Counted from the first letter of the stretch, positions 12,259 to 59,691 are shown. The stretch: DNA of 64,000 nucleotides from a virus (IMGVR_UViG_3300024054_000008:118740-182739), one strand, 5' to 3'. Notes: generated by a model from the letters alone, not told the origin. Made by a program: numbers and translations.

Positions 12259-12378
12259 CGGAAATCCGGGCGGGTCCGGCGTATCTGGTTTTGGGCGCGA
12301 CGCGGCGAGCGGCGCGGCGCCCGCCGGGATGGGCCCGGCGGAGATCGCGCGGCTCGCGGCGTATCGCCTCTCGGAGGT
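12259..12378 (+). promoter_or_regulatory. Two tandem ECF-like promoters (CGGAAA-N15-CGTA 12259-12283; CGGAGA-N15-CGTA 12339-12363) plus SD GGAGGT
   Basis: Exact matches to the window-wide motif. Confidence 0.7.
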
Positions 12379-12385
12379 TGAGACA

Positions 12386-12748
12386 ATGACCAATTCCAAC
12401 AACTACCCCTTCCTGTCCAAGGCCCAGATCGTCGCCAAGCTGGAGAGCGAGCCCGACTTCGTCAAGCAGGCCTGCCTCATCCTGACCTCGCGCCAGACCG
12501 AGGACGAGCTGGCCTCCCACGACACCAAGTGGAAGAACCGCCGCGGCTGGATGTCCTCGCACGCCCACTTCGGCACCGCCTGCGCCGAGAAGATCGCCCG
12601 CGACGAGGAGCTGACCGACGCCGAGCTGGCGAAGCTCACCGGGATGGTCTGCAAGTACCGCAAGCAGCTCGCGGCCCACTTCCGCGCCGAGGCCCTGGAG
12701 GCCAACCCCGACCTGGCCGACGCCGGCAAGATCTTCGGGGTCTGCTGA
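12386..12748 (+). CDS. GC-rich hypothetical protein, paralog of 27926..28288
   Basis: MTNSNNYPFL...WKNRRGWMSSHA...LAAHFRA.A.EANP.L.DAG..FGVC shared; SD GGAGGT. Confidence 0.85.
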   Translation: MTNSNNYPFLSKAQIVAKLESEPDFVKQACLILTSRQTEDELASHDTKWKNRRGWMSSHAHFGTACAEKIARDEELTDAELAKLTGMVCKYRKQLAAHFRAEALEANPDLADAGKIFGVC

Positions 12749-12756
12749 GATCGTGA

Positions 12757-12795
12757 CCCGACCCCCCGGGCTGGCGCAGGCTGGCCCGGGGGCTC
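12757..12795 (+). terminator. GC-rich hairpin after 12386..12748
   Basis: cccccgggc...gcccggggg. Confidence 0.55.
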
Positions 12796-12803
12796 TGGCA
12801 TGC

Positions 12804-13159
12804 CATACCTCTGAAGCAGACACAACAGGCGTCGTACCTCGAAAGTCTGCACACTGGCACCTCGCTGGCTCATCCTCTGGGCTCAGCGTCAGCTATATTT
12901 GCGAGCCATCCGGCTAACTCGACGCGGTCCGACCGTACCATGTCCGGTCCGAAGGCCGGTTTCACAGGCGTACCTCCGAGAGGCGATGCTGGCTCATCCG
13001 CCGCGGTTACCTCGAAGGTCTGGCACCTAGGTTTGAATCTACCACGCCTCTTGGCTCACCGGCTCACGCCTCACGCCTCTTGGGGCCAGGCTTCAGGAAA
13101 TGCCAGGCTCACGAGCCTAGGCGCGCGACAACCCATGGCATATCTGCTTCAAAGGTATG
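12804..13159. repeat. Non-coding region bounded by 17-nt inverted repeats with internal TACCTC/GGCTCA repeats
   Basis: catacctctgaagcaga (12804-12820) vs tctgcttcaaaggtatg (13143-13159), one mismatch. Confidence 0.7.
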
Positions 13160-13436
13160 CCATATGCTTGCAAAAGGTATCTTCTGAATACTCTTTCAAA
13201 GAATTATCTGAAAGAATCTTCTTTTAGGTGATCCGTTTAAAAACAAACTGTTTAAAATAAGAATTTAAGGCGAAGGTATGACATACCTTCGCCAAATGTG
13301 TATGTAATATTTCTTTTAAAATTATCATATAACTTGTAGATGTCTGAATTATTTGCTCCTTTGGTTGTTCCACATCTACAAGGAGATGACTTTGTTGAAC
13401 GGTTCTTTATTTTTGATCATAAATATATAACATATT

Positions 13437-13988
13437 TCAGCAATTTACCAGGTATTCTGTCTTAATTTCTCTGATAATTTGGTCCAAATCCTCATCCGTG
13501 ATGAGGTGAGAAGCATCTCTCCTCAAAATCGAACAGATTCCTTCCCTGAGTTGCTTCAGCAGGCCGGCCCGCGTGTTTTCTTCCCACTCCTTGAGAAGAG
13601 TTTCGCGATCGATTTTGAGATTGTCACGATAAATCTTGCCAGCTTTGATTATTTCTTTTGCCTTAGCATTCAAGGCCTCAAGAACAATCATAGGCTGTGC
13701 TCTGTAGTCAAAGTATTCTTCGTGAATTCTGTCTGAATAATATGAGAAAAAAACAGTTGTCAGTGCTTCTGAATACAGGTTGTATTCAATCTTATCTGAC
13801 ACAGCATCGACTTCGAAGTCGACCAAATAGCTGGTATTCTCTGAGCGGTTGTGAAAGAAAATTTCAACAACAACTTCGCCTCGGTCGTCCACTGAAATGA
13901 AATGTGAAAATGTGAAGTTGAAGTCTTGTATGGCTTCGGCGATCTTTGAAATTGTGTCGTCTTCGTATGGGATTACAGAATTAGACAT
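13437..13988 (-). CDS. Hypothetical protein, extended C-terminal module and tag (TEYLVNC)
   Basis: ITDEDLDQIIREIKTEYLVNC. Confidence 0.75.
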   Translation of the reverse strand: MSNSVIPYEDDTISKIAEAIQDFNFTFSHFISVDDRGEVVVEIFFHNRSENTSYLVDFEVDAVSDKIEYNLYSEALTTVFFSYYSDRIHEEYFDYRAQPMIVLEALNAKAKEIIKAGKIYRDNLKIDRETLLKEWEENTRAGLLKQLREGICSILRRDASHLITDEDLDQIIREIKTEYLVNC

Positions 13989-14029
13989 GGTATATACCTC
14001 TTCGATGTATGCCAGACCTCAGAAATGTA

Positions 14030-14263
14030 TCAGTAGTCTGGCTCGATCGGTTCGTCCACGTCGTTTTGGTCGTAGCCCGTCAAAATCTCGGGCCTGTACC
14101 GCGAGAGCTTCTCTTTTCGACAGTTGTCGCAAACGCGACAGAGCGGAATGCCCCGCGCATCACGCTCCCACCACGACGGCTCGGTTGAGACGGTTCCGCC
14201 AACGCATTGATGTTCACGCGCCATACGCAGCCTCCACGGCCCAATACGCGCGAAATCTGACAA
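14030..14263 (-). CDS. Small Cys-containing phage hypothetical protein
   Basis: WWERDARGIPLCRVCDNC. Confidence 0.6.
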   Translation of the reverse strand: MSDFARIGPWRLRMAREHQCVGGTVSTEPSWWERDARGIPLCRVCDNCRKEKLSRYRPEILTGYDQNDVDEPIEPDY

Positions 14264-14278
14264 TTTGCGCTGACTAAG

Positions 14279-14930: not shown

Positions 14931-15368
14931 TTAGCCCTTCAAAACCTCTTCGGCTTTCTTGTTGTTTTTCACGTACTTTTTTACAACTTGGCCGTTCTTC
15001 TTCCACCACTCGGTGGCAAGAACCAGGTCGCCCAGAGTCTTCAAGTACGGGCCGTAACTAGTGTCGTCAGGTCTAAACTCAGCAAGAACGAAGGCCCCAA
15101 AACTTCCCTGGCAGGCCAGTTCCTGTGCCTGTTTCCACAACGGGTGGTGGAACACCGACTCACTGTAGCCGTCACGGTGGTTTGAGAACCAAACCCCGAG
15201 GTTTGTCGAACTGACACTTTTTGGACAACAGTCTTCGGCCCGAACGCGTGTGAGTTGTTCTTCCACGTAGGCCAAGCCTTCGCGCTCGACCCACCAGTCA
15301 AACAACTTCCGCGTCAGGCCGCTTCCGAAACCTTCGGCTTTTGAAAGTCCAAAGTAACCCACGCTCAC
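14931..15368 (-). CDS. Hypothetical protein
   Basis: GTG start with GGAGGT SD, behind promoter at 15382-15406. Confidence 0.75.
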   Translation of the reverse strand: MSVGYFGLSKAEGFGSGLTRKLFDWWVEREGLAYVEEQLTRVRAEDCCPKSVSSTNLGVWFSNHRDGYSESVFHHPLWKQAQELACQGSFGAFVLAEFRPDDTSYGPYLKTLGDLVLATEWWKKNGQVVKKYVKNNKKAEEVLKG

Positions 15369-15468: not shown

Positions 15469-15816
15469 TCACGAACCAGGGCAGTGCAGGTACACTCCCT
15501 GGAAGGTCTTGAGGTTTTCCGGGTCTCCGGTGAACCCGATGACCCGGTACTCACCGTCCTTGCACGGAGCGGGGGTCTTCTTGGTCTTGACGACCGGCTT
15601 GGCCATCTTACCCACGATGCGAACCTCGGGAAGCTCCACGACCACTTCGGAGGCCACGACGATGGGTTTCGCCTTCGGCAGGGCAGGAAGGCTGGCGAGC
15701 TGAGCCGGCTTGGGGCTCGTGAAGGCCATCGGGTTGGCCTGCATGTAGACGGCCGTTCCTGCCAGGGCGGTGGCCGGGATGAGAAGCAGAACCGATGCGA
15801 TCAACTTTCCGTTCAT
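15469..15816 (-). CDS. Exported Pro/Lys-rich protein with signal peptide
   Basis: MNGKLIASVLLLIPATALA; two C-terminal Cys; SD GGAGGT. Confidence 0.75.
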   Translation of the reverse strand: MNGKLIASVLLLIPATALAGTAVYMQANPMAFTSPKPAQLASLPALPKAKPIVVASEVVVELPEVRIVGKMAKPVVKTKKTPAPCKDGEYRVIGFTGDPENLKTFQGVYLHCPGS

Positions 15817-16155: not shown

Positions 16156-16575
16156 TCAGTCTTCCATGTCGCCTTCTTCGGCTTCGAACGCGTACCCGTC
16201 TCGGTAGAGATAGTTGTGTTCGTACCCGGTGAACTCTTCTTGGTACAGGTGGGCAAGGACCGTGCACATCGTGTCCTGGAATAGGGCCCACCTGTAACCT
16301 TCTGCCTTCTTCTTGTCGACGACGTCACCATTTCGCATGAGCACTCCGTCTTCGGACAGTTCCCACACGACCCGACCTGGGGTGATTTGCACCATGCCGT
16401 CTTTGATGCCACCCCACGTCTCTTCCTCGGTCACTCGGAACGAGATCTTGCGATGATCGGCTGACAAGACCTCGTACGTTCGCCGCACGGACGCACTGGG
16501 GTGAACCGGCTTGATGTGACAGTATTCCTTGACCGATTTGACCTGGACCCCAACAATCTTCTTTGAATTGCGCAT
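16156..16575 (-). CDS. Hypothetical protein
   Basis: MRNSKK start with SD, behind promoter. Confidence 0.75.
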   Translation of the reverse strand: MRNSKKIVGVQVKSVKEYCHIKPVHPSASVRRTYEVLSADHRKISFRVTEEETWGGIKDGMVQITPGRVVWELSEDGVLMRNGDVVDKKKAEGYRWALFQDTMCTVLAHLYQEEFTGYEHNYLYRDGYAFEAEEGDMED

Positions 16576-16595: not shown

Positions 16596-16620
16596 TACGC
16601 TGACCAGCCAGTTGTTTTCG
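16596..16620 (-). promoter_or_regulatory. ECF-like promoter CGAAAA-N15-CGTA abutting the tRNA-Val 3' end
   Basis: Motif match followed by GGAGGT. Confidence 0.7.
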
Positions 16621-16621
16621 G

Positions 16622-16693
16622 TGGGCGGGACAGGTTTCGAACCTGCGACATCCGGCTTGTAAGGCCAGCGCTCTGCCGCTGAGCTACCCGCCC
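16622..16693 (-). tRNA. tRNA-Val(UAC)
   Basis: GGGCGGGTAGCTCAGCGGCAGAGCGCTGGCCTTACAAGCCGGATGTCGCAGGTTCGAAACCTGTCCCGCCCA cloverleaf. Confidence 0.95.
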
Positions 16694-16977: not shown

Positions 16978-17002
16978 TACGTCGGCCGTTTGGTTGTTTT
17001 CG
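16978..17002 (-). promoter_or_regulatory. ECF-like promoter CGAAAA-N15-CGTA upstream of the ncRNA candidate
   Basis: Motif match. Confidence 0.65.
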
Positions 17003-18833: not shown

Positions 18834-18858
18834 TACGCTGGCCGACGGCGACTTTCCG
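18834..18858 (-). promoter_or_regulatory. ECF-like promoter CGGAAA-N15-CGTA
   Basis: Motif match. Confidence 0.65.
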
Positions 18859-19153: not shown

Positions 19154-19238
19154 TACTCCGGACGCAGCGCGGCTTCCGTTAATTAGATCATATTCAAAAA
19201 TTCTTACATTGACCGGAGCTGACAGCGCGGCGCACGTA
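19154..19238. promoter_or_regulatory. Divergent ECF-like promoter pair (- CGGAAG-N15-AGTA 19154-19178; + CGGAGC-N15-CGTA 19214-19238)
   Basis: Two motif matches around an AT-rich spacer. Confidence 0.7.
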
Positions 19239-19257: not shown

Positions 19258-19464
19258 ATGATCACGTTGAGTTTCTCCACTCTTGCCCGCACGTCGCAGC
19301 AGCACCGCATCGTCTACCAGATCGTCAGCGGTCGAAGCCAGCCGCTGAACGTTGGCGCCGACGTTCTTGCCAAGCCGCACCACGGCAAGTTCGAGGTTCT
19401 GGAAGTGGAGCCTCTGACGCTTGCGGGGCAGCTCTTCTTGAGCTTGCTCAAGGCCGGCGGATGA
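19258..19464 (+). CDS. Small hypothetical protein
   Basis: ATG with GGAGGT SD. Confidence 0.7.
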   Translation: MITLSFSTLARTSQQHRIVYQIVSGRSQPLNVGADVLAKPHHGKFEVLEVEPLTLAGQLFLSLLKAGG

Positions 19465-20042: not shown

Positions 20043-20067
20043 CGGAGGCGTGTGACGGGTTGTCGTA
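20043..20067 (+). promoter_or_regulatory. ECF-like promoter CGGAGG-N15-CGTA
   Basis: Motif match followed by GGAGGT. Confidence 0.7.
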
Positions 20068-20087: not shown

Positions 20088-20402
20088 ATGGTTTTCCCTG
20101 AGTATTCTTCGATCGAGTCCTTTGTGGAGTTCTGCTTGGACGACGACGTCACCGAGTTCTCGCATGAAGATTTGGTAGAACTCAACCGATATCTCCACAT
20201 CCCTATTCACAAATTGAGGGAGATGCTCGAAACCTACGGCATGAGCTTGAAAGAACGACAGGTGCCTCGACAGGTTCGTGGCTTTAGAACAAGTTCACAT
20301 GACCGCTGGTTCGGACCAGGGTCTTGCAAGACCCACGGCGGGTCGGCATTTGGCCAAATGATGGTCTCAAAATACGGATCAAAAGACACGCCGTTTGGCT
20401 GA
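20088..20402 (+). CDS. Conserved phage-type hypothetical protein
   Basis: ATG with SD; EYSSIESFVEFC...VRGFRTSSHDRWFGPG. Confidence 0.75.
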   Translation: MVFPEYSSIESFVEFCLDDDVTEFSHEDLVELNRYLHIPIHKLREMLETYGMSLKERQVPRQVRGFRTSSHDRWFGPGSCKTHGGSAFGQMMVSKYGSKDTPFG

Positions 20403-20458: not shown

Positions 20459-21136
20459 TTACAACTCACCCAATTGACGGACGAGCTGTTCTTTCAAGAG
20501 CTTCTTTTTAAATCCGGGTCGCTTCTTCTCTAGCATTGGAAGAAGTTCGTTGCGAACCCAAACCCGTAGGTATTTTGGATCACTATTGGATGGGTCTGTG
20601 GCATATGGCACAGACCATCGCTTCAGATATCGCATGATTTCTTCACGCGTGACATTGAGCAAAGGCCGGAAAACCGGAATTTCGTTCACCGGTGTGTGAA
20701 GCCGTCTAATTGTTTTCAGATTTCCTTCTCGGATAAGCCCGATGAGAAGATTCTCTGCCTTGTCATCTTCAGTGTGCGCGGTAACAATTACCGCGTGAGA
20801 AAGGCCTCGGGCCGCGGTTCTCAACGCTTCGTAACGGGCCTCACGCGCACGTGCCTGCAAGTTCGGACCTTTGGCAACTTTGATTTTCACGCGACGGAAC
20901 GGAACACCAATTGACTTGGCCAAGTTCTCGGCCAAGTCAAGCTCCTCGTTAGCTTCAGGTCGCAAACCATGATTGACACCAACGGCAATACATCTAGATG
21001 GTCCAACAATATGTGGTATAGATTTGAGCAAACACTGAGAATCAGGACCGCCACTAACCGCAAGCACGAAAGTCTGGTGCTTTAGTTCCCAAGGCAATGC
21101 TAGAAGCGCATCTTTGATTTTGTTATTGATGCTCAT
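20459..21136 (-). CDS. tilS: tRNA(Ile)-lysidine synthase, catalytic domain only
   Basis: PP-loop AVSGGPDS; VNHGLR; AREARY; TAHTEDD; RPLL; DPSN; RVWVRN. Confidence 0.9.
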   Translation of the reverse strand: MSINNKIKDALLALPWELKHQTFVLAVSGGPDSQCLLKSIPHIVGPSRCIAVGVNHGLRPEANEELDLAENLAKSIGVPFRRVKIKVAKGPNLQARAREARYEALRTAARGLSHAVIVTAHTEDDKAENLLIGLIREGNLKTIRRLHTPVNEIPVFRPLLNVTREEIMRYLKRWSVPYATDPSNSDPKYLRVWVRNELLPMLEKKRPGFKKKLLKEQLVRQLGEL

Positions 21137-21138
21137 TA

Positions 21139-21561
21139 TCAGTCCACAATGAGACTCCAAGCGATGACCTGTTCGTCATCTGGAGTCGTCACAACTTCGA
21201 TCCTGAAGTTGTCGCCAAATTCGTTGTTTGGAACGAACCTACGCAACCAACATCTTTCGGCTTGTTTGGTATCTGACGCAGTTTTCTTGAGCAAATCATC
21301 GTCGCACCAACCGGCAACGTCAGTGAGCCAGCCAAACTCAACCGGTTGGTTATTCTTGTAATCGTACTTTGTACAAAGAAGACCTGGCCATTCTTCCTTG
21401 AGGCGCTCTTTGCTTTCACGCTTCCACTGTTTGGTGTCACACCAATCATCCCAATGAATGACTGTGTTTTCGACGAACGCGCTGTTCAAATAGTTTTTGA
21501 TTTCGGGCGTGTTGATCCACCCAGCCATCAACTCACGAAGTTTCTCAGTCGAGAGTTTCAT
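21139..21561 (-). CDS. Trp-rich hypothetical protein
   Basis: Coupled ORF. Confidence 0.7.
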   Translation of the reverse strand: MKLSTEKLRELMAGWINTPEIKNYLNSAFVENTVIHWDDWCDTKQWKRESKERLKEEWPGLLCTKYDYKNNQPVEFGWLTDVAGWCDDDLLKKTASDTKQAERCWLRRFVPNNEFGDNFRIEVVTTPDDEQVIAWSLIVD

Positions 21562-21827
21562 TTGAGCGCATCCTCTATTGCTTGGAGAAGTTCGAACGCC
21601 GGTTTTGCCTTGGATTCTGTTTCGAACCCGTCTGGGAGATTGAAATCGATTTCGTTGTCATCACCAGAGACGTCAATTGTGACGCCGCGATTGTTTTCGA
21701 AATCTTCGATGACAGATTCGGTCTTTTCAAGCACCTCATCGTACGACAAATTATAATTGAAATCCGAAGTCAACGTTCTTCGAACATCATTTTCATCGTC
21801 ATTGAGATAGGTCACGATGAGTTTCAT
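21558..21827 (-). CDS. Acidic hypothetical protein
   Basis: AGAGGA SD; behind promoter 21838-21862. Confidence 0.7.
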   Translation of the reverse strand: MKLIVTYLNDDENDVRRTLTSDFNYNLSYDEVLEKTESVIEDFENNRGVTIDVSGDDNEIDFNLPDGFETESKAKPAFELLQAIEDALK

Positions 21828-22106: not shown

Positions 22107-22438
22107 TGGTCTCCATCCAGTTTGGAGATTTTCACGAACTTGGTGTTCTTTGCAAAGTCAGCTATCGCCGTCCAGGGTTTTTTAAATGGCCGAGTTGCAA
22201 CGCGGTCCGGCTTGCCACTTTGTGCGAGATTGGAAAACGACGAGTAAACCCTTGGGTAACATTCGGAACAAATGCCCAAAACGCTCCCATTTTTAAAACA
22301 TTTCAGTTTTCCATCAAGAAACAACACGTAAACTGAATCGTCCAAACGGTGGCCCTGGTTTGCCCGGACGTTGGTTGTCATGCACGGGCAGAGAAGTACG
22401 ACTTGACCGTATTTGGCCACAAACTCATTGAGATTCAT
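22103..22438 (-). CDS. Hypothetical protein, EFxxK(Y/F)G family
   Basis: MNLNEFVAKYGQVVLLC; paralog of 22655..22990. Confidence 0.75.
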   Translation of the reverse strand: MNLNEFVAKYGQVVLLCPCMTTNVRANQGHRLDDSVYVLFLDGKLKCFKNGSVLGICSECYPRVYSSFSNLAQSGKPDRVATRPFKKPWTAIADFAKNTKFVKISKLDGDQ

Positions 22439-22605
22439 GTGTGTGCCCCATCAGTTCTGAGCGCTTCTTTCTCTTCGAGACGCTTGGCTCTCCGGTTCAG
22501 GTACTTCTTGATGCGCCGTGTGACTTTGCTCGGCCCGTGGGGAAAGAGACGGCTGGACACGGTCCCACCATCCTCGAAATTGGCAATCTTCTTGTAATTG
22601 CTCAT
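22435..22605 (-). CDS. Small basic protein (56 aa, not in ORF track)
   Basis: MSNYKKIANF...RRIKKYLNRRAKRLEEK; AGGTGG SD; promoter 22624-22648. Confidence 0.65.
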   Translation of the reverse strand: MSNYKKIANFEDGGTVSSRLFPHGPSKVTRRIKKYLNRRAKRLEEKEALRTDGAHT

Positions 22606-23196: not shown

Positions 23197-23211
23197 TCTT
23201 GCACAACATTG

Positions 23212-23295: not shown

Positions 23296-23324
23296 ATTAG
23301 ACTATACAGTTAACACGCTATGGT

Positions 23325-23624: not shown

Positions 23625-23667
23625 TGGTACGTCGGGCCGGGCTCGGTTTGCGTTTGTCGGAAATTTG

Positions 23668-23738: not shown

Positions 23739-23743
23739 AATTG

Positions 23744-23818: not shown

Positions 23819-23822
23819 ATAG

Positions 23823-23894: not shown

Positions 23895-23898
23895 TTAG

Positions 23899-24720: not shown

Positions 24721-24735
24721 GTCGAACTCATTTTG

Positions 24736-24820: not shown

Positions 24821-24821
24821 G

Positions 24822-26854: not shown

Positions 26855-26879
26855 TACGAGCGGCAGTCAACAATTTACA
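26855..26879 (-). promoter_or_regulatory. ECF-like promoter TGTAAA-N15-CGTA
   Basis: Motif match. Confidence 0.6.
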
Positions 26880-27579: not shown

Positions 27580-27618
27580 TACGTCCGCGCCAGCGTAGCT
27601 TACGCTTGTTGTGTCGTA
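27580..27618. promoter_or_regulatory. Overlapping divergent ECF-like promoters sharing a palindromic -35 region
   Basis: + CGTAGC(27594-99)-N15-CGTA(27615-18); - CGTAAG(27599-604)-N15-CGTA(27580-83); AGCGTAgctTACGCT. Confidence 0.7.
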
Positions 27619-27638: not shown

Positions 27639-27845
27639 ATGTCCGCTGAGAAATATTTTGATAAGCACATCCACCACGCTGCCCAGCGTCTTGGTTTCGG
27701 ACAAGACTTTGAAAACGTCGTAAATCATCTTGTGACGTTGGTCGGAACTTACGAGACCGCTCATCTCATCGCAAAGGCAGCCCAGGTCTATCTTGCTTGG
27801 GAAATCACTTCGGAAAACCACCAGCCTGAGTCCGGCCGGTCGTAA
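27639..27845 (+). CDS. Small hypothetical protein
   Basis: MSAEKYFDK start with GGAGG SD. Confidence 0.65.
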   Translation: MSAEKYFDKHIHHAAQRLGFGQDFENVVNHLVTLVGTYETAHLIAKAAQVYLAWEITSENHQPESGRS

Positions 27846-27865
27846 GTCGGCCGTCAGGCGGCGTA
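27841..27865 (+). promoter_or_regulatory. ECF-like promoter CGTAAG-N15-CGTA
   Basis: Motif match upstream of 27926 gene. Confidence 0.65.
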
Positions 27866-28293: not shown

Positions 28294-28335
28294 CAGCGCG
28301 GCCGGCCTGGCGCAAGTCAGGCCGGCCGCGCTGTA
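28294..28335 (+). promoter_or_regulatory. Hairpin overlapping ECF-like promoter CGCAAG-N15-TGTA (28311-28335)
   Basis: cagcgcggccggcctg...caggccggccgcgctg. Confidence 0.6.
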
Positions 28336-31168: not shown

Positions 31169-31193
31169 TACGCACGGGCACAACCGGCTTCCG
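31169..31193 (-). promoter_or_regulatory. ECF-like promoter CGGAAG-N15-CGTA
   Basis: Motif match. Confidence 0.65.
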
Positions 31194-32590: not shown

Positions 32591-32615
32591 TACGCCGAGC
32601 TCTGCCCGACTTGCG
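32591..32615 (-). promoter_or_regulatory. ECF-like promoter CGCAAG-N15-CGTA
   Basis: Motif match followed by GGAGGT. Confidence 0.7.
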
Positions 32616-35582: not shown

Positions 35583-35882
35583 ATGACTGAATACGAAAAG
35601 CAAGAAGAGTATCAGGACAACGAATACGACGAGGGTGATTCGGACAACGGAAACAGGCGCCAGCCACGCGTACCGATGCGTGGAGGTGAGACAATGACCG
35701 ATCCGCAAATCATCACAACGGCAACTCTCAAAACCAACAAGGCCGGAGGCGAACTTTTGACGTTCACCATTCGCCTCGGGTTTTTCCAGCTCGTCTGCAT
35801 CGCCAACATCCCGGAGGAGGGACAAGACGAGGCCCCGGTCTACGTCAAGTTCAAGGTCTCGACTCCACGAGAACGAACCTGA
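35583..35882 (+). CDS. Paralog of 18579..18776 (core from 35697)
   Basis: MTDPQIITTATLKTNKAGGELLTFTIRLGFFQLVCIANIP. Confidence 0.8.
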   Translation: MTEYEKQEEYQDNEYDEGDSDNGNRRQPRVPMRGGETMTDPQIITTATLKTNKAGGELLTFTIRLGFFQLVCIANIPEEGQDEAPVYVKFKVSTPRERT

Positions 35883-41633: not shown

Positions 41634-41658
41634 CGGAGACACAACGCGTCGGTACGTA
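41634..41658 (+). promoter_or_regulatory. ECF-like promoter CGGAGA-N15-CGTA
   Basis: Motif match followed by GGAGGT. Confidence 0.7.
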
Positions 41659-43170: not shown

Positions 43171-43797
43171 ATGGAAATCAAGGCGGCCCTGCCGTATCAG
43201 GCGAAGGAGGCCGAGTGGATGGCACAACGAAGCGGTTACTCAAAAGTGGTTTCAATTCTACGTGATCTTCCAGAAACAAAAGAGTTCGAGAAGCATTTCA
43301 CCTCTGAGCTAAAACATGCTCGCATTGAGGTGATTGAGTTCGACGTCAATTGGAAAAATGAAATCACCCAAACTTTCCAAATCCAGTTTGGGACCAATCC
43401 TGAAAGAAATGACGATTGGCTTTCCGAAAAAACTGCTGGTGACTTTTTCAAATTTTGTTCACAACCGATCAAAAAGTTTGCTGAAGAAATTCTTGATTCG
43501 GTTTGGAACACCCCGCGTTGTCGAACCTTCAATTGCAAGCGTGACAAGGTCGAAGAAAAGTTGATTTGCGCTATCAGTAATGAAAATTTAGTTGATTCCG
43601 ACCGCAGGGAAGAACTTCAAAAGCTTGTGGAGAGGTGCAAAGAAAGCGAAGACTTTCTGAAAGCCAAACGCCTCTTCACGGAAAGGAAGAGCAAAAACGC
43701 CATCGTTGACGCTCTGAAGAAATTCCCTGATATTTCAGACGAAGTCTTCCAAGAAGCGCTCCACGAATATCTATCAGAGAGGGTGGTTGATTCTTGA
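43171..43797 (+). CDS. Hypothetical protein, extended module and tag (SERVVDS)
   Basis: DISDEVFQEALHEYLSERVVDS. Confidence 0.75.
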   Translation: MEIKAALPYQAKEAEWMAQRSGYSKVVSILRDLPETKEFEKHFTSELKHARIEVIEFDVNWKNEITQTFQIQFGTNPERNDDWLSEKTAGDFFKFCSQPIKKFAEEILDSVWNTPRCRTFNCKRDKVEEKLICAISNENLVDSDRREELQKLVERCKESEDFLKAKRLFTERKSKNAIVDALKKFPDISDEVFQEALHEYLSERVVDS

Positions 43798-46602: not shown

Positions 46603-46627
46603 TGCAGATGTGCGCCCTTCGCGCGTA
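46603..46627 (+). promoter_or_regulatory. ECF-like promoter TGCAGA-N15-CGTA
   Basis: Motif match followed by GGAGGT and a 16-codon leader ORF (46645..46695). Confidence 0.6.
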
Positions 46628-47635: not shown

Positions 47636-47660
47636 TGAAGGTCGACCGGCTCCGTGCGTA
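47636..47660 (+). promoter_or_regulatory. ECF-like promoter TGAAGG-N15-CGTA
   Basis: Motif match followed by GGAGGT. Confidence 0.65.
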
Positions 47661-47680: not shown

Positions 47681-49237
47681 ATGTCGTTGGATAGGTTGAG
47701 CACACGATTGCAGGATTCGCGCGGCTTGCTGCGCGAAGACCAGGGCTTGCTGCGGGAACTTCAGCAGAAGGTGTCCGCTGCAATGACCAAGCTGGCACAA
47801 CAGCCGAAGAACGGGGGCCACCCGTTCCTCTTCGCGCTCACTGCTCCAAAGCCACACGAAGTGGTTGACAAGATCGGACACCAGCCAATCCGCACGGCAG
47901 CAACGGATGGCAAGCAGTTCTATTGGTATCCTGGGTTTCTCAAGAAGCTGGACGCGATGGAGATTTCCACCGTGATGCAGCACGAAGGATACCACGTGCT
48001 CTTCGACCACGTGCGTCGCGGAATGGGCCGCAACCACGACGTTTGGAACTGGGCCATCGACTATGTCGTCAACTGCGTGATCGAAATCGATCACGAGCAG
48101 CAGCAGCGACAGGGCGCTCTCTGGACGCCCAATCTCGGAACGCCTCTTCCGCTCAAGACCTTGCTCGATTGGCTGGATGCCAAGAAGGGTGCCAACCTTC
48201 CAAAGACCGGTGAGGACTCCGGCCTGATCTTCGCAGACAAGACCCTCCAGGGCCGCACTCCGGAGAGTATCTACGACGAGATCATGAAGCACTTGGAGAA
48301 TTCTCCCCGCAAATGCCCGGCCTGTGGCGGCGTCGGGAACAAGATCTTCAAGAAGAAGGGTGACCAAGAAGGCCAGGGCGGTTCCGGTGACCAGGACCAG
48401 GAAGGTGATGGTCAAGAACAGGACTCCGGCCGGGGCCAGGGACAGGGCGACCAAGAAGGCCAGGGCGGGGGCTGTGGACACGATCACTCCGACGATGGAG
48501 ATGGTCACGGCGGACACACCTGCAAAACCTGTGGCGGCAAGCTCCTTCCGATGGATGCCCATATCATGCCTGGCGTCACCAAGGAGGAAGCCGTTCAAGA
48601 GGCACTGCGCGCGGCCGATACTGCCAAGAAGATGCGCGGATTGGTGCCATCAGGTGTCGAAGATGTGCTGGGGGAATTGGAAAAGCCAACCCTCACCTGG
48701 CAGGACATCGTTCGGAACGCCGCCACGCGCAAGAAGATGGACGTCGGGAACAAGAACGATTGGAAGCGATTCCGTCGTCGTCCGATGTCATTCCCCATGC
48801 CGCAATACATGCCTCGCAAGCATGACCACCGACCCAAGGTGCTAGCGATGCTGGACACCTCAGGATCAATGGGCCAAGATGATCTCGTATACGGTGTCTC
48901 TCAGCTCCAGGTCCTCGGGGATGACATGGATCTTCTGATTGTCCCGTGCGACGCCCAGCCCTATTGGCAAGACGCCACTCTGGCAAAGAATCTCCGTGAT
49001 CTCAACCGCACGAAGGTCACGGGCAGGGGCGGAACGGTTTTCAATCAGTTCTTCGAGGAATTCCCGCGCAAGGTTGGCAGGGATTTCGACGTTGTGGTAG
49101 TCATCACAGATGGCTATTGCGGCGAAATCCCGATGGAGTTGAAACCACCGTGCGATGTCGTCTGGGTTCTCACACAAGACTTCGCCTACAACCCCACCTT
49201 CGGGCGCGTGGCTCCGATGAGAAACCGGAAGCTCTGA
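47681..49237 (+). CDS. Metallopeptidase-VWA protein (DUF2201-like MoxR partner)
   Basis: TAATDG; HEGYHVLFDH; WNWAIDYVVN; MIDAS LDTSGSM; GRGGT; VVITDG. Confidence 0.9.
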   Translation: MSLDRLSTRLQDSRGLLREDQGLLRELQQKVSAAMTKLAQQPKNGGHPFLFALTAPKPHEVVDKIGHQPIRTAATDGKQFYWYPGFLKKLDAMEISTVMQHEGYHVLFDHVRRGMGRNHDVWNWAIDYVVNCVIEIDHEQQQRQGALWTPNLGTPLPLKTLLDWLDAKKGANLPKTGEDSGLIFADKTLQGRTPESIYDEIMKHLENSPRKCPACGGVGNKIFKKKGDQEGQGGSGDQDQEGDGQEQDSGRGQGQGDQEGQGGGCGHDHSDDGDGHGGHTCKTCGGKLLPMDAHIMPGVTKEEAVQEALRAADTAKKMRGLVPSGVEDVLGELEKPTLTWQDIVRNAATRKKMDVGNKNDWKRFRRRPMSFPMPQYMPRKHDHRPKVLAMLDTSGSMGQDDLVYGVSQLQVLGDDMDLLIVPCDAQPYWQDATLAKNLRDLNRTKVTGRGGTVFNQFFEEFPRKVGRDFDVVVVITDGYCGEIPMELKPPCDVVWVLTQDFAYNPTFGRVAPMRNRKL

Positions 49238-52299: not shown

Positions 52300-52709
52300 C
52301 CATCAATCACTTCTCTAGTTCGTTTGTAGAGCTTACCAACTGCAGAAACAAATGCACCCCAACCAAGGTGTTTTTTCATTTTCCATCCAATTGTGTAATT
52401 CATCCTTGCTTTAACTGCATTTTGAACAACATTTTTATAACCGTCAGATAGTGCTAGATTCCACAGGTACTTGGCGATTTTCTCGCTCATGAGAAAATTC
52501 AAAAATTCAGAGTATAAACATTCTTGTTCGACAATTACTGAACCAACATCTGAATCATGCAGTCCTCTGTTTATGAAGTCCTTGACTTCCAATTTAGAGT
52601 ACCATTCATTGATTTTGTCTTCTAACCCAATGTTATCAAAAAATGCGTTTAATAGCCCAAGACCAATAGCTTCTCCACCTGTTACACTTGAAATGTTAAC
52701 CCAATTCAT
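52296..52709 (-). CDS. Hypothetical protein, C-terminal tag (TREVIDG)
   Basis: ORF with signature. Confidence 0.7.
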   Translation of the reverse strand: MNWVNISSVTGGEAIGLGLLNAFFDNIGLEDKINEWYSKLEVKDFINRGLHDSDVGSVIVEQECLYSEFLNFLMSEKIAKYLWNLALSDGYKNVVQNAVKARMNYTIGWKMKKHLGWGAFVSAVGKLYKRTREVIDG

Positions 52710-53017
52710 TCGTCAGATTTGGTAAGAAGATCGAGAAGCTGCTTCTCGTTGATGATTTTCACACCCATCTGCTCGGCCTTGCGGAGCTTGTTGGACTTGG
52801 TTCCATCAATGGACCCAGTCGTCCAAACCTTGTTGGTGCAGAGGTAGTTTACACCCCAAGTGACAGCTTTCTCGAAAGTCATGCCGGCCATTTCAACGAT
52901 ACGTTGATAATCGTCCCTCGGCAAGCCAAGGTGACCAGTAAACGCAATGCGCTTGCCGCGTGTCCACTTCGTTGGGACCGGTTCGAGAACCTGAAGCGTT
53001 CTGGCTTCGTCAGACAT
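52706..53017 (-). CDS. Stand-alone BRCT domain protein
   Basis: IAFTGHL..R......VEMAG..V...VNYLCT...SNKLRKAEQMGVKIINE, as in the LigA C-terminal BRCT. Confidence 0.88.
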   Translation of the reverse strand: MSDEARTLQVLEPVPTKWTRGKRIAFTGHLGLPRDDYQRIVEMAGMTFEKAVTWGVNYLCTNKVWTTGSIDGTKSNKLRKAEQMGVKIINEKQLLDLLTKSDE

Positions 53018-53087
53018 CTCATTCTCTCTGGCCATGCTGACCTCCACAATCGATACGAACACGGAGCTCGGACTTGCAGTTATTGCA

Positions 53088-54263: not shown

Positions 54264-54514
54264 GGTACGACCTCACAGAATAATAAAACTAACACTAAAT
54301 CAGTGACTGGAATGTGTGTTAGTTGCGAAGCCGACGACAGACCGACGCCAGCTTCAGCATGCCATGTTCGAGTTTTCACCTTGTAATTTTTCCCGCCAAA
54401 TCTCACGATATCATCAACATCAGGTGCTGCACGTGCTCTACCATCAAACACTGGTATAAACTCACCACCATCTTGAATGAGAACTGAGTACCTAAGCAAT
54501 GTGTCGCTGGTCAA
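54260..54514 (-). CDS. Small hypothetical protein
   Basis: Coupled ORF. Confidence 0.6.
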   Translation of the reverse strand: MTSDTLLRYSVLIQDGGEFIPVFDGRARAAPDVDDIVRFGGKNYKVKTRTWHAEAGVGLSSASQLTHIPVTDLVLVLLFCEVVP

Positions 54515-54834
54515 TTTACGTCTCCGTCTGAGAAGTACCTTGCAAAGACGTCCGGCCCTTGCCCGCGAACGATGAAAGACATCTTCCCAGATGTCACTTC
54601 GTACTTTTGGAAAATCGGCTCTGTCACCGTTCCTCTTGCAACCATTGGGACGTGTTTGGCTGATCTCAAATTTGCAAGATCTTTTTCCGTAAAGCGCGTA
54701 TTTGTGCGCATATTCATCGGTGCCTTCGTCATAAACAAGAACTTCAAAAAATCAAGCAATTCGTCGAATTCCTCCTCACTCATCACAATTGATGTCAAAG
54801 TTTCTCCATCGAAGACGAACTCATGTTTGGTCAT
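54511..54834 (-). CDS. Hypothetical protein
   Basis: GGAGGT SD; promoter 54855-54879. Confidence 0.75.
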   Translation of the reverse strand: MTKHEFVFDGETLTSIVMSEEEFDELLDFLKFLFMTKAPMNMRTNTRFTEKDLANLRSAKHVPMVARGTVTEPIFQKYEVTSGKMSFIVRGQGPDVFARYFSDGDVN

Positions 54835-54854: not shown

Positions 54855-54879
54855 TACGCACGAGCCAGCCGCAGCTCCG
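54855..54879 (-). promoter_or_regulatory. ECF-like promoter CGGAGC-N15-CGTA
   Basis: Motif match followed by GGAGGT. Confidence 0.7.
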
Positions 54880-54888: not shown

Positions 54889-55443
54889 TCAGCCTTCTAG
54901 AATTTCTTCAGTAAGAGCCTCTTTGAAAAGAATCTTTATTTCGTCCTCCGATAAACCGATATTAAGAGCGTATTTCAAATTGGCTCTAATTGCAGATTTT
55001 ACTTTTGTTTTCAAAACTGCTACTCTGGCATCTTTTCTTTTACCAGAATCGACAACTTTCATGGCTTCGTTAATGGCTTGCCTGTAAAGCCACTTACCAT
55101 GTTCAAACAAATTTTCTTCTTCAATCAACATTTCTGAAACATATGTCATATGTGACGCAATAAACCCGTTACCTTCACCAATCATTTGCTTTTTCGCAAG
55201 TGGTGTAAAAATCGAATTAAACAACTCCTCTACCATGCTGTTCGATGGATCTTTCTCGAATTGGTTTTTGACAAACCCCTCCGTAAAAGAAATGCGGGCA
55301 GTCCTTCTGGACTCACCCATACGAAATCGGACTTGAATTTGCAAGGCATGCCTTGTCGGACTTGCCGAAATGACAATTGCATTTGGCAGCTCCTTGAGAG
55401 CCTCAGTTTTGATGGTTTCAAAAAGTTCTTTATGATTTCTCAT
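54889..55443 (-). CDS. Hypothetical protein, extended module and tag (TEEILEG)
   Basis: GLSEDEIKILFKEALTEEILEG. Confidence 0.8.
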   Translation of the reverse strand: MRNHKELFETIKTEALKELPNAIVISASPTRHALQIQVRFRMGESRRTARISFTEGFVKNQFEKDPSNSMVEELFNSIFTPLAKKQMIGEGNGFIASHMTYVSEMLIEEENLFEHGKWLYRQAINEAMKVVDSGKRKDARVAVLKTKVKSAIRANLKYALNIGLSEDEIKILFKEALTEEILEG

Positions 55444-55461: not shown

Positions 55462-55501
55462 AGAGGGGCTGGGCCCGTTTCCGAACCCAGCCCCTCTTTT
55501 T
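55462..55501. terminator. Hairpin with U-tract
   Basis: agaggggctggg/cccagcccctct followed by ttttt. Confidence 0.7.
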
Positions 55502-56349
55502 CAGTTGGAGGTGGCACTTTCTTTCTTTTTGATGCGGACGGCCTTGCCGTCGGGAGTCTTCAGACAAAGACCGCTGTAGAACTTGTTGAGCAAGTCCCAC
55601 ACTTTTCGTTTCTCAGCCTTCGGGAAAACCATCCCCTTGTCGGTCTTCGAGAAGTACGTTGCCGGGAACGCCTGTCGGAATTCGTACGCCCAACGCGGAT
55701 TGTACTCGCTTTTCTTGATCCAAATTGCGAAGAAATTCGGGTTCCCCTCGGACTCTTTGATGGAAGCGATGCAAAGAGTCTCACGGAGCTTGGAAGCGAG
55801 AGTGTAGAAGCCCAACGCATCGAGAGCGTCCGTGCAGGCATCGTGCACTTCAGTACGCCGATTCAGAGAACAGATCCTCACGATCCCGTTCATGAGTTTG
55901 TGGGCGTGCCCCTTCTCGACACCACCAGCGTTCTTGACGAGGTAATCGACCAGATGCGGCCACTTTCCGAGCATGATCATGGCCTCGATCGGGTCGCAAG
56001 ATCCCTCCGGCTCTTCCGTGTAGCCCTTCTTTGAGCAGATCGGGCCAATTCCCCTTTGAACAGAGATGGCGTCCGTGAGCTTGAGACTGCAGTGGGCGCA
56101 GTGTGAGCAGACGCCTTCGAGTACGATCCGGTGTTTACGAGCGGCCTCGTCCAGCACATCCTGGCTGAACATGACGACCCCTTCGTAACCGGCCGGCGCT
56201 TCGCGCACCTTGTCCACTTCCTCCGGATTCAAAAGCGGGGCCTGCTCTGGGGGAACCTCTTCTTGCGGCAGAACCTGAAGCTGCTCCTGCTTGGAAGCCT
56301 GTTCCTTGTCGACCTCCTCGATCAAGTTCAGAAGCTCGTCATTGGTCAT
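55501..56349 (-). CDS. DUF6011-like zinc-finger protein
   Basis: CAHCSLKLTDAISVQRGIGPICSKK. Confidence 0.75.
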   Translation of the reverse strand: MTNDELLNLIEEVDKEQASKQEQLQVLPQEEVPPEQAPLLNPEEVDKVREAPAGYEGVVMFSQDVLDEAARKHRIVLEGVCSHCAHCSLKLTDAISVQRGIGPICSKKGYTEEPEGSCDPIEAMIMLGKWPHLVDYLVKNAGGVEKGHAHKLMNGIVRICSLNRRTEVHDACTDALDALGFYTLASKLRETLCIASIKESEGNPNFFAIWIKKSEYNPRWAYEFRQAFPATYFSKTDKGMVFPKAEKRKVWDLLNKFYSGLCLKTPDGKAVRIKKKESATSN

Positions 56350-56597: not shown

Positions 56598-56942
56598 TTA
56601 GCCTTTCGGCACCGCGTGAATCACTTCAAGAGAGAGAAGCTGCCCGAGGTTTGGGTTGTATGTGCGCCAAGCACCGCGGGTTTTCGAACCATCTTTGTTG
56701 ATGGTGTCTCTGGTATCTGCGAACACCCGTACGCAAAGGTCGCCCTTCTTGGACTCCCATACCTGAGAAAGCGCTCCGAGAACGTGGCGTTTCGCGATAC
56801 CCTCTTCGCGAACCGTCCGTTCGGCTTCGAGCAAAGCCCTCTCAGTTGGTTCTTTCCCAGCAAGGTAACTCAAAAAGAGCAGGCTCCCGGGGCCAACGTC
56901 TTTGAGGATCTCGCTCACATCATCGGCTGTCAAAACACGCAT
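56598..56942 (-). CDS. Hypothetical protein
   Basis: GGAGGT SD; promoter 56963-56987. Confidence 0.75.
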   Translation of the reverse strand: MRVLTADDVSEILKDVGPGSLLFLSYLAGKEPTERALLEAERTVREEGIAKRHVLGALSQVWESKKGDLCVRVFADTRDTINKDGSKTRGAWRTYNPNLGQLLSLEVIHAVPKG

Positions 56943-56962: not shown

Positions 56963-56987
56963 TACGCACGAGAAGCCGCGGCTTCCG
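56963..56987 (-). promoter_or_regulatory. ECF-like promoter CGGAAG-N15-CGTA
   Basis: Motif match followed by GGAGGT. Confidence 0.72.
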
Positions 56988-57515: not shown

Positions 57516-57539
57516 ATCAGTCCTTGATCAAAGATTCCG

Positions 57540-57986
57540 TCATGATTCTATTACACTTTTGGTCGTTTGAAGCTGGCTTGCAAATTGGTTGATTTCTTTC
57601 TTGTGAGTCTTCCACCAACGACTATCCTTCAGTTCTTCACCAAGCATATTGCATATCGAATGTACAATAAATTTATCCCAATCATATTGAAATCTGTCCA
57701 TCAACTCTTGCATGAGCCAGTTGGCAAAATCAGCATTTTTTTGCTCGTGTCGGCTGTTTGATTGGACAACATCCAAAATAAAATTGACAAGTTCACATCT
57801 GTCATAAACCCACCGCCCAACGTCTTTGATTTGTCTAGAACCTTTAGTGTATTTAAGCATGTCTTCATAGCCAAATTTTTCAATTGTGTTGTAAATTTCA
57901 TCCCTTTTTGATATTACAACCCATTCAGCAATTGCCTCAGGCAGACCATGTAGGACTTGTTGTTTCCAGTATCCCTTATGCGCCAT
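57540..57986 (-). CDS. Hypothetical protein, C-terminal tag (TKSVIES)
   Basis: Promoter 58009-58033; signature. Confidence 0.75.
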   Translation of the reverse strand: MAHKGYWKQQVLHGLPEAIAEWVVISKRDEIYNTIEKFGYEDMLKYTKGSRQIKDVGRWVYDRCELVNFILDVVQSNSRHEQKNADFANWLMQELMDRFQYDWDKFIVHSICNMLGEELKDSRWWKTHKKEINQFASQLQTTKSVIES

Positions 57987-58008
57987 TCAGATACGCCTCA
58001 CCGTCCAG

Positions 58009-58033
58009 TACGGACGAAAACCGGACAACTTCG
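58009..58033 (-). promoter_or_regulatory. ECF-like promoter CGAAGT-N15-CGTA
   Basis: Motif match. Confidence 0.6.
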
Positions 58034-58042
58034 GTCGCTCAA

Positions 58043-58642
58043 TCATTCTTCGATCACTGAACGTGCAAATTCTTCATGAACCAAATTTACAATTTCTTCT
58101 TCAGTTAGATAGCTTGAAACGTTCTTGAGTGTAGACCGAAGTGACGTTACGGCACCGCGTTTTTTGCGTTCTGGTTGTAATTTTAATTGATTTTCCATAA
58201 ACTTTTCAAGTCTTCTACTGGCGTCAGCTGAATTTTCATAATCTTTTATGAATTTCATAATCTTATCGTAATTGTCGTTTATAAGATCTTCACCGACGCC
58301 ATCTGTTAATGAGATTGCGATTAATCCGTTTGCTTCTTGAAAAGCCGAGAAGTCAAATTTTATATTTTTAGGAATTGTGTCATTCAGTTTTGATACACCA
58401 AGTAAACTTAAAGAATGTTTTGGTGTTGTTTTGAGAATATTCAATACAGCAAAATTTGTTTTCAATTCAACATACCCGATAAATTTGTAGTGTGGACCAA
58501 TCCGTGTAATTCTACCTTTTGGTTTCTTTGGGAGTTTGAAATTGGACCAAAATTCTTTTAACTCATTAATTACGATCTTATATTCATCAGATTTATACAT
58601 CAAATTGTATAAATCACTAGCTCCATACTCACGTTTTTTCAT
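58043..58642 (-). CDS. Hypothetical protein, extended module and tag (ARSVIEE)
   Basis: YLTEEEIVNLVHEEFARSVIEE. Confidence 0.75.
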   Translation of the reverse strand: MKKREYGASDLYNLMYKSDEYKIVINELKEFWSNFKLPKKPKGRITRIGPHYKFIGYVELKTNFAVLNILKTTPKHSLSLLGVSKLNDTIPKNIKFDFSAFQEANGLIAISLTDGVGEDLINDNYDKIMKFIKDYENSADASRRLEKFMENQLKLQPERKKRGAVTSLRSTLKNVSSYLTEEEIVNLVHEEFARSVIEE

Positions 58643-59358
58643 CCGGACCTCACCGCGTTGGTTTTTGCAAGATTTTGTGCATCTTGAACGTCCTCAATTT
58701 TGATAAAACCCAAATCTGCTTGGTTTCGTTTGGCAAAAGCATAAAGTTTTTTAGCATTAATCATGTTATTTTCACAAACCCTCAAGAAAGAAATCACATC
58801 ATTTGGGTTAATGTCCATCAAATCGAGATCTTTCAAAAAATACTCAAATTTCTTGACAAATTTTCTTCTTTCGCGATCAATGTTTTTTTGGTTGCTTGAC
58901 CATTCTTCAAAAATCGAATCTTTGTCTTTGATGATTCTTTTCTCAATTGATTTAACATCGTCAAGATGTTTCTTGGCTTTGTCTTCAATACCGTCCAAAA
59001 AGATGGCCCAAATTTGATGAGAAGAATGGATTAAACCGTCATGTCTAGTAGCATAGTATGAATTAAGTCTGGAAATATTAGTTGAAAAATTTGGGCTACT
59101 GTTTCTATCGAAAGAAAATGGATTGACCAAAATTTTGAAATTGTCGTGGACTAGAAAAATTTGTGGGATGATTGAAAAATTTTCTGAAACTGCAAAATCT
59201 CCAGTTTTGCTTTTTGAAATTTTTGGTTTCTTTTCTACAATTTTTCCAAATTCGATGGCTTGACGCCAACACCAAACTTCTTCCAAAATTTCATCTCGAA
59301 TACTTCTATCAGAGACATACGGGCCCATTTTCGCGCAAAATTCGTCAAAATCAACCAT
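58639..59358 (-). CDS. Hypothetical protein, near-match tag (TNAVRSG)
   Basis: MVDFDEFCAKMG start resembles the EFxxK(Y/F)G family. Confidence 0.75.
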   Translation of the reverse strand: MVDFDEFCAKMGPYVSDRSIRDEILEEVWCWRQAIEFGKIVEKKPKISKSKTGDFAVSENFSIIPQIFLVHDNFKILVNPFSFDRNSSPNFSTNISRLNSYYATRHDGLIHSSHQIWAIFLDGIEDKAKKHLDDVKSIEKRIIKDKDSIFEEWSSNQKNIDRERRKFVKKFEYFLKDLDLMDINPNDVISFLRVCENNMINAKKLYAFAKRNQADLGFIKIEDVQDAQNLAKTNAVRSG

Positions 59359-59653
59359 CGAGAACCTCGTTTGAGATGTTCATTTCTTTCATGTGTTCGA
59401 TAGCCTCTTCCCTGCTGAAAAATACCATCGAGTCTTCGTAAGTGACTTGGGCTTCTCTGATCATATTTTCGAAGCTTTGATGAAGTTTGACACCAACGGA
59501 ATCAAGCGAATATTTGAAGCCAGGTGGATTGTTTTCTTGAAAATATACAACCCAGACAGTTTTCAAGGGGGAACGTTCCCTTCGACGAAGTTCGTTCTTC
59601 TCCCACCAAGAACCGGGTGGCGGAAGGCCCTTGCGCTTCCAATACGGAATCAC
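59351..59653 (-). CDS. Hypothetical protein, C-terminal tag (SNEVLDG)
   Basis: Promoter 59667-59691; signature. Confidence 0.7.
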   Translation of the reverse strand: MIPYWKRKGLPPPGSWWEKNELRRRERSPLKTVWVVYFQENNPPGFKYSLDSVGVKLHQSFENMIREAQVTYEDSMVFFSREEAIEHMKEMNISNEVLDG

Positions 59654-59666
59654 GACTACTGAACGA

Positions 59667-59691
59667 TACGGTCACCGTGCTGGCGCTTCCG
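59667..59691 (-). promoter_or_regulatory. ECF-like promoter CGGAAG-N15-CGTA
   Basis: Motif match. Confidence 0.7.

Follow-up and report, generated by a model that had tools for sequence, protein, structure and literature searches.

The final 64 kb of virus contig IMGVR_UViG_3300024054_000008 carry many copies of a two-box motif, yGnAR(n) and CGTA, placed just upstream of ribosome-binding sites, which raises the question of whether these copies are promoters and, if so, which protein reads them. The window analysed here is this whole stretch of 64,000 nucleotides; it belongs to a 182,739-bp IMG/VR contig that is about 43% complete as estimated by CheckV and gave no match when compared with the phage nucleotide collection. 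In 5-kb bins the contig is AT-rich across its first 125 kb (GC 33–36%) and turns into a mosaic of 42–54% GC at 125–175 kb. An earlier note on the sequence had proposed a regulon of about 36 promoters of the extracytoplasmic function (ECF) type with a fixed spacer of 15 nt. The analysis described below argues for one promoter class, confined to a clade of huge phages that are uncultured, that would be read by the host RNA polymerase together with a small phage-encoded sigma factor; we give this reading a probability of about 0.6.

A rigid module joined to the Shine-Dalgarno sequence

The pattern YGVAR-N16-YGTA was found 50 times in the window, compared with 10.4 ± 3.0 times (maximum 17) in shuffled sequences. 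When the whole contig was searched with the −35 box left free, that is, with anchors only on CGTA, GGAGG and a start codon, 23 matches were obtained, all of them at contig positions 131–176 kb (window 12.3–57 kb). Counted from the C of CGTA, yGnAR stood at exactly −21 to −17 in 22 of the 23; the single match lacking it was a chance match adjoining a true site. Only G2 and A4 of the −35 consensus yGnAR(n) were near-invariant among the anchored sites, position 5 being A (12) or G (11) and position 6 being A (9), G (10) or C (4). Several copies had CGTA as the −35 box itself (CGTAAG or CGTAGA).

We scanned the whole contig with a matrix that scored the conserved columns only against a uniform background. 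There were 39 sites at a cut-off of ≥12 and 34 at ≥14, all at contig 130–179 kb (window 12.2–59.7 kb), and none in reversed-sequence controls scanned with the same matrix, in good agreement with the copy number of about 36 proposed before. A first matrix, which included the spacer and assumed an AT-rich background, was overwhelmed by matches to coding repeats of high GC content and was replaced by the conserved-column matrix. The false matches came from collagen-like, GC-rich triplet repeats (periodic coding of the GGn-CCn type) that lie in AT-rich surroundings at contig 1–2100 and about 21000–21700. The sites named individually in the earlier note were all correctly placed, two of them being weak: the site at 19178 has AGTA (score 11.2) and that at 49294 has TGTA (score 11.9).

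The proposed fixed spacer was borne out, as 41 copies had 15 nt between the boxes and every other length within 12–20 nt was represented by only 2–8 copies. The spacer is free in sequence and mostly GC-rich. The −10 box is CGTA in 34–39 sites and is followed by yCG. For 27 of the 39 sites a Shine-Dalgarno (SD) sequence and a start codon were scored; the distance from CGTA to the SD was 8–9 nt in 25 of these, within the 7–9 nt given earlier, and that from the SD (GGAGG) to the start codon was 5–6 nt in 21. By eye, about 31 of the 39 sites have some SD and start codon within about 25 nt. The full module is thus rigid and about 45 nt long: yGnAR(n), 15 nt, CGTAyCG, 8–9 nt, GGAGGTG, 5–6 nt and ATG. 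Its SD block reads (t)GGAGGTGA, an extended form that is the complement of the 16S rRNA 3′ end, and the sites point the same way as the genes around them throughout.

Two boxes at a rigid distance, a single orientation, a fixed distance to the SD and ATG and a −10 box like the CGTA of sigmaW support the assignment to an ECF-type promoter, which clearly differs from the sigma70 consensus; the latter was not clearly enriched in the motif region. Judging from these features, the sites are very probably promoters. The view that their transcripts are almost leaderless was not upheld. Since the SD starts 8–9 nt after CGTA, the geometry permits a start about 6–9 nt after the −10 box, and if starts follow the 6–9 nt rule of phage 7-11 (see below), the transcripts would begin 0–3 nt before the SD and would not be leaderless, for they would carry the full GGAGGTGA block.

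One could envisage that the module is not a promoter at all, and that it serves instead as a junction for gene-cassette recombination or as an RNA-level signal for translation or processing within longer transcripts. The region is indeed highly variable, with 106 of 152 motif-led open reading frames (ORFs) from six genomes being singletons. Moreover, 12 of the contig's 25 copies have the stop codon of the preceding gene at exactly −33 from the C of CGTA, the GC content increases at the 5′ edge of the module, and phages of the T4 type reportedly shuffle genes at conserved early-promoter stem-loops. In contrast to what such a junction would need, conservation is limited to two short boxes at a sigma-like distance, and the free spacer and flanks offer little homology for recombination. 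The folding potential of the module did not differ from that of shuffles (mean z about 0) in any of the four segments tested, which also excluded the RNA or single-stranded DNA hairpin that the palindromic look of some copies had suggested, and the conserved genes of the region are those carrying the module. We consider a non-promoter role highly improbable; a recombination role could exist alongside promoter function.

The −33 stop codon lies 9 nt before the −35 box and is usually TGA, often within TGATCT. A second stop-like triplet is seen at −25 in 9 of the 25 copies, and the corresponding peaks in relatives are weaker and at other offsets (−27 in the related contig G005 and −31 in G002). 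An apparent sigma70-type −10 element just upstream of the module (T at −33 and −41) was traced to this stop codon (TGA, TAA or TAG) and the last codons of a C-terminal tag shared by many small ORFs, and is specific to this contig. The idea of a terminator-promoter cassette was likewise rejected, there being no enrichment of terminator-like sites.

Conservation in related phages and the candidate sigma factor

When all IMG/VR contigs were searched with a strict form of the module, 22 stretches matched, 18 of which lay within six large contigs. The module is present in at least seven contigs related to the one studied (G000), each with 20–60 clustered copies, and five of them are complete genomes of 362–436 kb. 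The complete genomes are G001 (436 kb), G002 (393 kb, copies at 324–377 kb), G003 (427 kb, copies at about 179–226 kb and densest at 216–226 kb), G006 (376,674 bp, or 377 kb, copies at 220–254 kb) and G007 (363 kb); G004 is a 274-kb fragment and G005 a 202-kb fragment with 27 copies in 33 kb. These copies were checked by whole-record searches and in fetched regions, and the controls were near-empty. The −35 box has variants, CGCAAATT in G001 and a GTAGATC type in G003, and anchoring on CGTA plus the SD recovered CG.AA at −21 in each genome.

The genes of the region that are common to several genomes encode the ligase, an AAA+ ATPase, a DUF2201/VWA protein, a BRCT protein, a DUF6011 protein, a 114-aa protein and a 120-aa family. 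Comparison of orthologous promoters showed that conservation is limited to the two boxes and the SD, with a spacer and upstream sequence that differ freely, which is the pattern expected of DNA boxes read by a protein. The many singletons among the motif-led ORFs indicate rapid turnover of the region, with the promoter persisting.

Which protein might read the boxes? Three complete relatives were searched with profiles, and each encodes an RpoD-like sigma of about 400 aa, a sigma of 220 aa, and a protein with two sigma region-4 domains. The three copies of the 220-aa sigma are 53–59% identical. Its N-terminal half matches Sigma70_r2 (PF04542, 29.8 bits) and the sigma70-ECF superfamily model (TIGR02937), and a structure model comprises a sigma2 bundle and a C-terminal domain of four helices, connected by a disordered linker (predicted local distance difference test score 63). 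The top fold matches of this model in the PDB were all sigma factors, with sigmaE, SigH, SigW, CnrH, AlgU and SigK prominent, and were weak (E 0.02–0.5); a profile search against PDB sequences gave no match. The protein was found at 14 loci in an IMG/VR search, and in a comparison made up of sigma-encoding genomes both the sigma and the motif cluster were present in five of five complete relatives, including G006 and G007. These sequence comparisons make the small phage sigma the probable reader of the sites. Judging from synteny, the corresponding gene of the studied phage should lie in the missing part of its genome, as the sigma gene of the relatives is 190–240 kb away from the gene for the dual-region-4 protein and hence would fall outside this fragment. 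The earlier proposal of a host- or phage-encoded ECF sigma is supported by the complete relatives, where a small sigma of ECF-like build exists, with the qualification that none was detected in the contig itself.

Upstream of the sigma genes of the relatives the motif is absent at 13 of 14 loci. The upstream regions carry sigma70-type promoters instead, often with an extended −10 element (for example, TTGTTA-17-TATAAT and TTGCGC-17-TAGAAT, both with the TG extension), which suggests that the motif-led class is later than immediate-early. We envisage that a host sigma or the RpoD-like sigma would produce the small sigma from these promoters, and that the small sigma (about 220 aa, with the two-domain build of ECF factors) would then, on host core RNA polymerase, activate 35–60 mostly single-gene units. 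The units lie in the fast-changing region that holds the ligase, the AAA+ and DUF2201-VWA pair, the BRCT protein, tRNAs and many orphan genes.

Several observations weigh against a small phage sigma as the reader. No sigma region-2 gene was detected in the studied contig, about 43% complete as it is, and because of this the link to the small sigma is drawn from synteny and from the relatives. Classical ECF promoters have a conserved AAC in the −35 box, which is missing here. No profile recognised region 4 of the 220-aa protein, and its fold matches were weak (best E 0.02). The co-occurrence comparison is confined to sigma-bearing relatives, and the dual-region-4 protein co-occurs with the motif as well as the small sigma does. 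Finally, three fragmentary contigs with a more divergent sigma copy (49–56% identity) lack the motif, a result that is uninformative.

The dual-region-4 protein is itself a candidate transcription factor for the motif. In the studied contig it is a 255-aa protein (contig 63039–63806, minus strand; L001:1060-1827:-) with two tandem Sigma70_r4 helix-turn-helix matches and no region 2, and it is present in all five relatives searched for it (G001–G005). The two boxes could be viewed as a CGnA...CGTA direct repeat, with both copies facing the same side of the helix at a distance of 21 bp, to which this protein would bind as a specificity factor, as an activator or partner in sigma appropriation, or as a repressor; the occurrence of CGTA at the −35 position, by which both boxes share CGnA, agrees with this view. 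However, the 8–9 nt between CGTA and the SD leave no room for a separate −10 element, so that CGTA must itself be the −10 box, the recognition of which is the job of sigma region 2. Nothing else ties the protein to the sites, and co-occurrence with the motif does not tell it apart from the small sigma. This explanation is, in our judgement, distinctly unlikely.

The RpoD-like sigma is conserved in all complete relatives and could also be considered as the reader. It has regions 1.2–4 of a primary-type sigma, and in its region 2.4 the positions aligned to Q437 and T440 of Escherichia coli sigma70 are occupied by H and K, a change that hints at a different preference at −12. Comparison of the G001 protein (L025:1051-2253:+) with E. 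coli sigma70 showed, however, that region 4.2 is intact and retains RERIRQIE. In sigma70 this segment reads the TTGACA-type −35 box, and its retention makes the RpoD-like sigma an unlikely reader of CGnAR; we regard recognition of the motif by this protein as extremely improbable.

Composition of the proposed regulon and the genes behind the sites

Motif-led genes have a higher GC content at third codon positions (GC3) than core genes in all six genomes compared. The values for motif-led ORFs and core are 0.66 and 0.22 in the studied contig, 0.63 and 0.22–0.26 in G003, 0.69 and 0.23 in G005, 0.77 and 0.40–0.49 in G001, 0.75 and about 0.5 in G002, and 0.91 and 0.86 in G004; the gap is thus about 0.25–0.45 in five genomes and about 0.05 in the GC-rich G004. 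Inside the window the difference is significant at p = 2.6e-5. The motif region contains seven tRNA genes (16620–16693 and 23211–24893, minus strand), six of which read A-ending codons (Val-TAC, Gln-TTG, Pro-TGG, Arg-TCT, Ser-TGA and Glu-TTC) and thus serve the AT-rich core; the seventh is tRNA-Met (CAT). We examined whether the GC-rich genes could be recent imports from GC-richer relatives and rejected this idea, given identities to relatives of 65–72% for DNA and 40–65% for protein, and because it is the GC-rich motif-led genes that are conserved within the region.

These codon data bear on a further possibility, namely that an alternative sigma of the host (ECF type), such as one that envelope stress induces upon infection, reads the sites, which would then form an early class needing no phage protein. 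The host-like, GC-rich codons of the regulon, set beside phage tRNAs that read A-ending codons, would fit expression before phage factors accumulate. The absence of a sigma gene from the studied contig also favours a host factor, and a CGTA −10 box is typical of bacterial ECF sigmas (PMC5758882). Against this, phages with core GC anywhere from 33% to 65%, and so probably with different hosts, share the motif, each complete genome has its own conserved small sigma, and dependence of 35–60 genes on a host stress sigma would be fragile. We therefore consider a host sigma unlikely and continue to favour the small phage sigma. A label from a Methylobacter metagenome-assembled genome on one homologue of the 120-aa family was too weak to be used for host identification.

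We tentatively suggest that the genes under this promoter class form a compositional compartment of their own, which is actively maintained within the genome, although we think this less likely than not to be correct. The contrast is found whatever the core GC (33–65%) and despite orthologue identities of only 40–65%. It might reflect a division of translation in time, in which host tRNAs serve the regulon and a pool supplemented by phage tRNAs serves the AT-rich core; other possible causes are steady gene flux and GC-biased gene conversion, the region being rich in repeated promoters and prone to recombination.

The sites and the genes behind them are listed in Table 1. The ligase, MoxR and VWA genes, which had been placed under control of the motif, each lie directly behind a copy.

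Table 1. Predicted promoter sites and neighbouring features in window coordinates
Position	Strand	Score	Gene behind the site	Remarks
12259..12283	+	14.0	12386-12748	CGGAAA-N15-CGTA; no SD; in tandem with the 12339 site
12339..12363	+	21.4	12386-12748, 120 aa	SD and ATG; gene GC3 0.99; 8-member family across relatives
14245..14269	-	19.9	14030-14224, 64 aa	
15382..15406	-	20.1	14931-15362, 143 aa	
15839..15863	-	22.5	15469-15816, 115 aa	
16596..16620	-	20.5	16156-16575, 139 aa	abuts 3′ end of tRNA-Val (16620-16693)
16978..17002	-	18.0		duplicate of the predicted promoter at 16620; SD, no start codon; preceded by a degenerate tRNA-like 3′ end; may drive tRNA-Val, which lies about 285 nt downstream
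18834..18858	-	15.6		no clear SD
19214..19238	+	19.9	19258-19464, 68 aa	
19855..19879	+	16.6		promoter-like
20043..20067	+	17.1	20088-20402, 104 aa	
22624..22648	-	14.9	22435-22605, 56 aa	weak SD (GGTGGA)
23628..23652	-	16.5	23325-23609, 94 aa	
26074..26098	-	16.5	25862-26053, 63 aa	TGTA variant
26855..26879	-	14.4	26697-26834, 45 aa	TGTAAA box
27580..27618	both	15.6 and 19.0	27388-27561 (-) and 27639-27845 (+)	divergent, back to back; −35 boxes overlap in a palindrome (CGTAAG / CGTAGC)
27841..27865	+	15.1	27926-28288, paralogue gene	leader of about 60 nt
28311..28335	+	13.3	28358-28753, cREC_REC receiver domain (PF20274)	TGTA variant
31169..31193	-	14.9		no SD
32591..32615	-	19.3	32362-32571, 69 aa	
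34016..34040	-	18.7	33098-33997, 299 aa	TGGAAC; gene conserved in G003 and G005
35648..35672	+	22.6	35694-35882, 62 aa	
36817..36841	+	17.9	36860-37891, ATP-dependent DNA ligase (PF01068 and PF14743)	motif retained at orthologues in G001 and G005
41634..41658	+	19.9	41678-42400, 240 aa	
42792..42816	+	15.6		no SD
43172..43196	+	17.3	43219-43797, 192 aa	
45296..45320	+	23.4	45341-46474, AAA+ (MoxR-like) ATPase (AAA/AAA_5)	motif retained at orthologue in G001
46483-46514				13-bp stem-loop, 3′ of the AAA+ gene
46603..46627	+	21.5	46645-46695, 16-codon mini-ORF	followed by second SD/ATG
47636..47660	+	20.2	47681-49237, DUF2201 metallopeptidase-like/VWA (PF13203 and PF09967)	motif retained at orthologues in G001 and G002
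53054..53078	-	20.1	52706-53035, BRCT domain (PF00533)	motif retained at orthologue in G002
54855..54879	-	22.3	54511-54834, 107 aa	
56370..56394	-	20.8	55501-56349, DUF6011, 282 aa	motif retained at orthologues in G001 and G002
56963..56987	-	22.6	56598-56942, 114 aa	motif retained at orthologues in G001 and G002
58009..58033	-	12.1	57540-57986, 148 aa	weaker site (CGAAGT, SD GGTGAGG)
59667..59691	-	20.1	59351-59566 (downstream)	no adjacent SD
25527-25782	-			group I intron (Rfam RF00028, 58 bits), GC-rich region beside tRNA cluster
26177-26405	-			group I intron (Rfam RF00028, 58 bits), same region

Three of the sites without an adjacent SD, those at 12259, 27841 and 31193, have a common predicted initial transcribed sequence, TCTGnTGTTGGGC. 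The shared first bases, TyTGnTGTTGGGC, lie within 12283–12300, 27865–27882 and 31152–31169 (minus strand), and one further copy is present in G005. Two of the three sites lead paralogous 120-aa genes through leaders of about 60–100 nt, and the shared sequence may be a leader element.

Some further features of the ORFs are recorded here. Dozens of small, mostly AT-rich ORFs of the window (281–62468) end in (K/T)T-x-E-(V/I)-(L/V/I)-(E/D)-(S/G)-stop, for example those at 36259–36807, 54889–55443 and 59744–60334, and the same C-terminal motif is found on some motif-led genes (14931–15362, 26437–26703 and 57540–57986). A tRNA with anticodon CTA, of the amber suppressor type, is encoded at contig 102253–102327, and when TAG is read as sense the number of ORFs of at least 200 aa rises modestly from 111 to 130. 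Recoding of TGA, which ORF lengths had suggested, was rejected because TGA ends the tagged genes and 18 of 27 motif-led ORFs, and the standard reading was kept.

Comparison with known promoter systems

The promoter class described here would provide a transcription map for an uncultured clade of 360–440-kb phages, in which 35–60 units are assigned to one regulon, and would name a candidate pair of sigma and promoter, open to tests in vitro that do not require cultivation of the phage; orthogonal pairs of this kind are useful parts in synthetic biology. If the association of codon composition with promoter class is confirmed, it would bear on how translation is scheduled in large AT-rich phages that carry their own tRNAs.

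In Bacillus subtilis, promoters of sigmaW have, according to the earlier note, a spacer of N16, one base longer than the spacer found here. Their boxes are TGAAAC and CGTA (PMC5758882), and the two systems share the CGTA core of the −10 box, a −35 box with G2 and A4, and a rigid distance between the boxes; the candidate reader here would likewise be a two-domain sigma. Unlike the sigmaW −35 box, that of the phage module does not conserve AAC, its position 5 being A or G and its position 6 free. More generally, two boxes at a rigid distance and a −10 box with a CGT core, both traits of ECF promoters, are present, whereas the −35 AAC (GGAAC or TGAAAC type) is absent. Autoregulation of the sigma gene together with an adjacent anti-sigma gene, which is common, though not universal, for ECF factors, was not seen in the relatives, and no co-directional partner gene was found downstream of the sigma gene at the locus inspected (L028). 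The regulon also differs in kind, being that of a phage here and a cellular stress regulon in B. subtilis.

A motif that is over-represented before phage genes and lies in the sense orientation, as observed here, is the mark of a phage-private class of the type served by gp47 of phage 7-11, gp36 of phiEco32 and gp28 of SPO1. The gp36 promoters of coliphage phiEco32 consist of a single element, tAATGTAtA, and require the cofactor gp79 (PMC12276001, PMC8948821). There, as proposed here, an earlier gene class supplies the phage sigma, which then redirects the host core polymerase to phage genes (from middle and late promoters); in contrast to that one element, two conserved boxes are present in our module.

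The closest tested precedent is Salmonella phage 7-11, whose sigma SaPh711_gp47, composed of sigma2 and sigma4, was shown by experiment to use late promoters of the form GTAAtg-N16-aCTA with starts 6–9 bp downstream (PMC8948821). Phage 7-11 is a phiEco32-like and far smaller phage than the 360–440-kb phages considered here, and its eight promoters are experimentally proven, whereas the 35–60 sites here are predicted. The boxes of our module, yGnAR and CGTA, its 15-nt spacer and its fixed fusion to the SD also set it apart. The two systems, nevertheless, would have in common a small phage sigma, private bipartite promoters with a fixed spacer before phage genes, and coexisting early promoters of the sigma70 type. 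A promoter class private to a phage and served by the phage's own sigma is thus a known strategy, here proposed for an unstudied group of phages.

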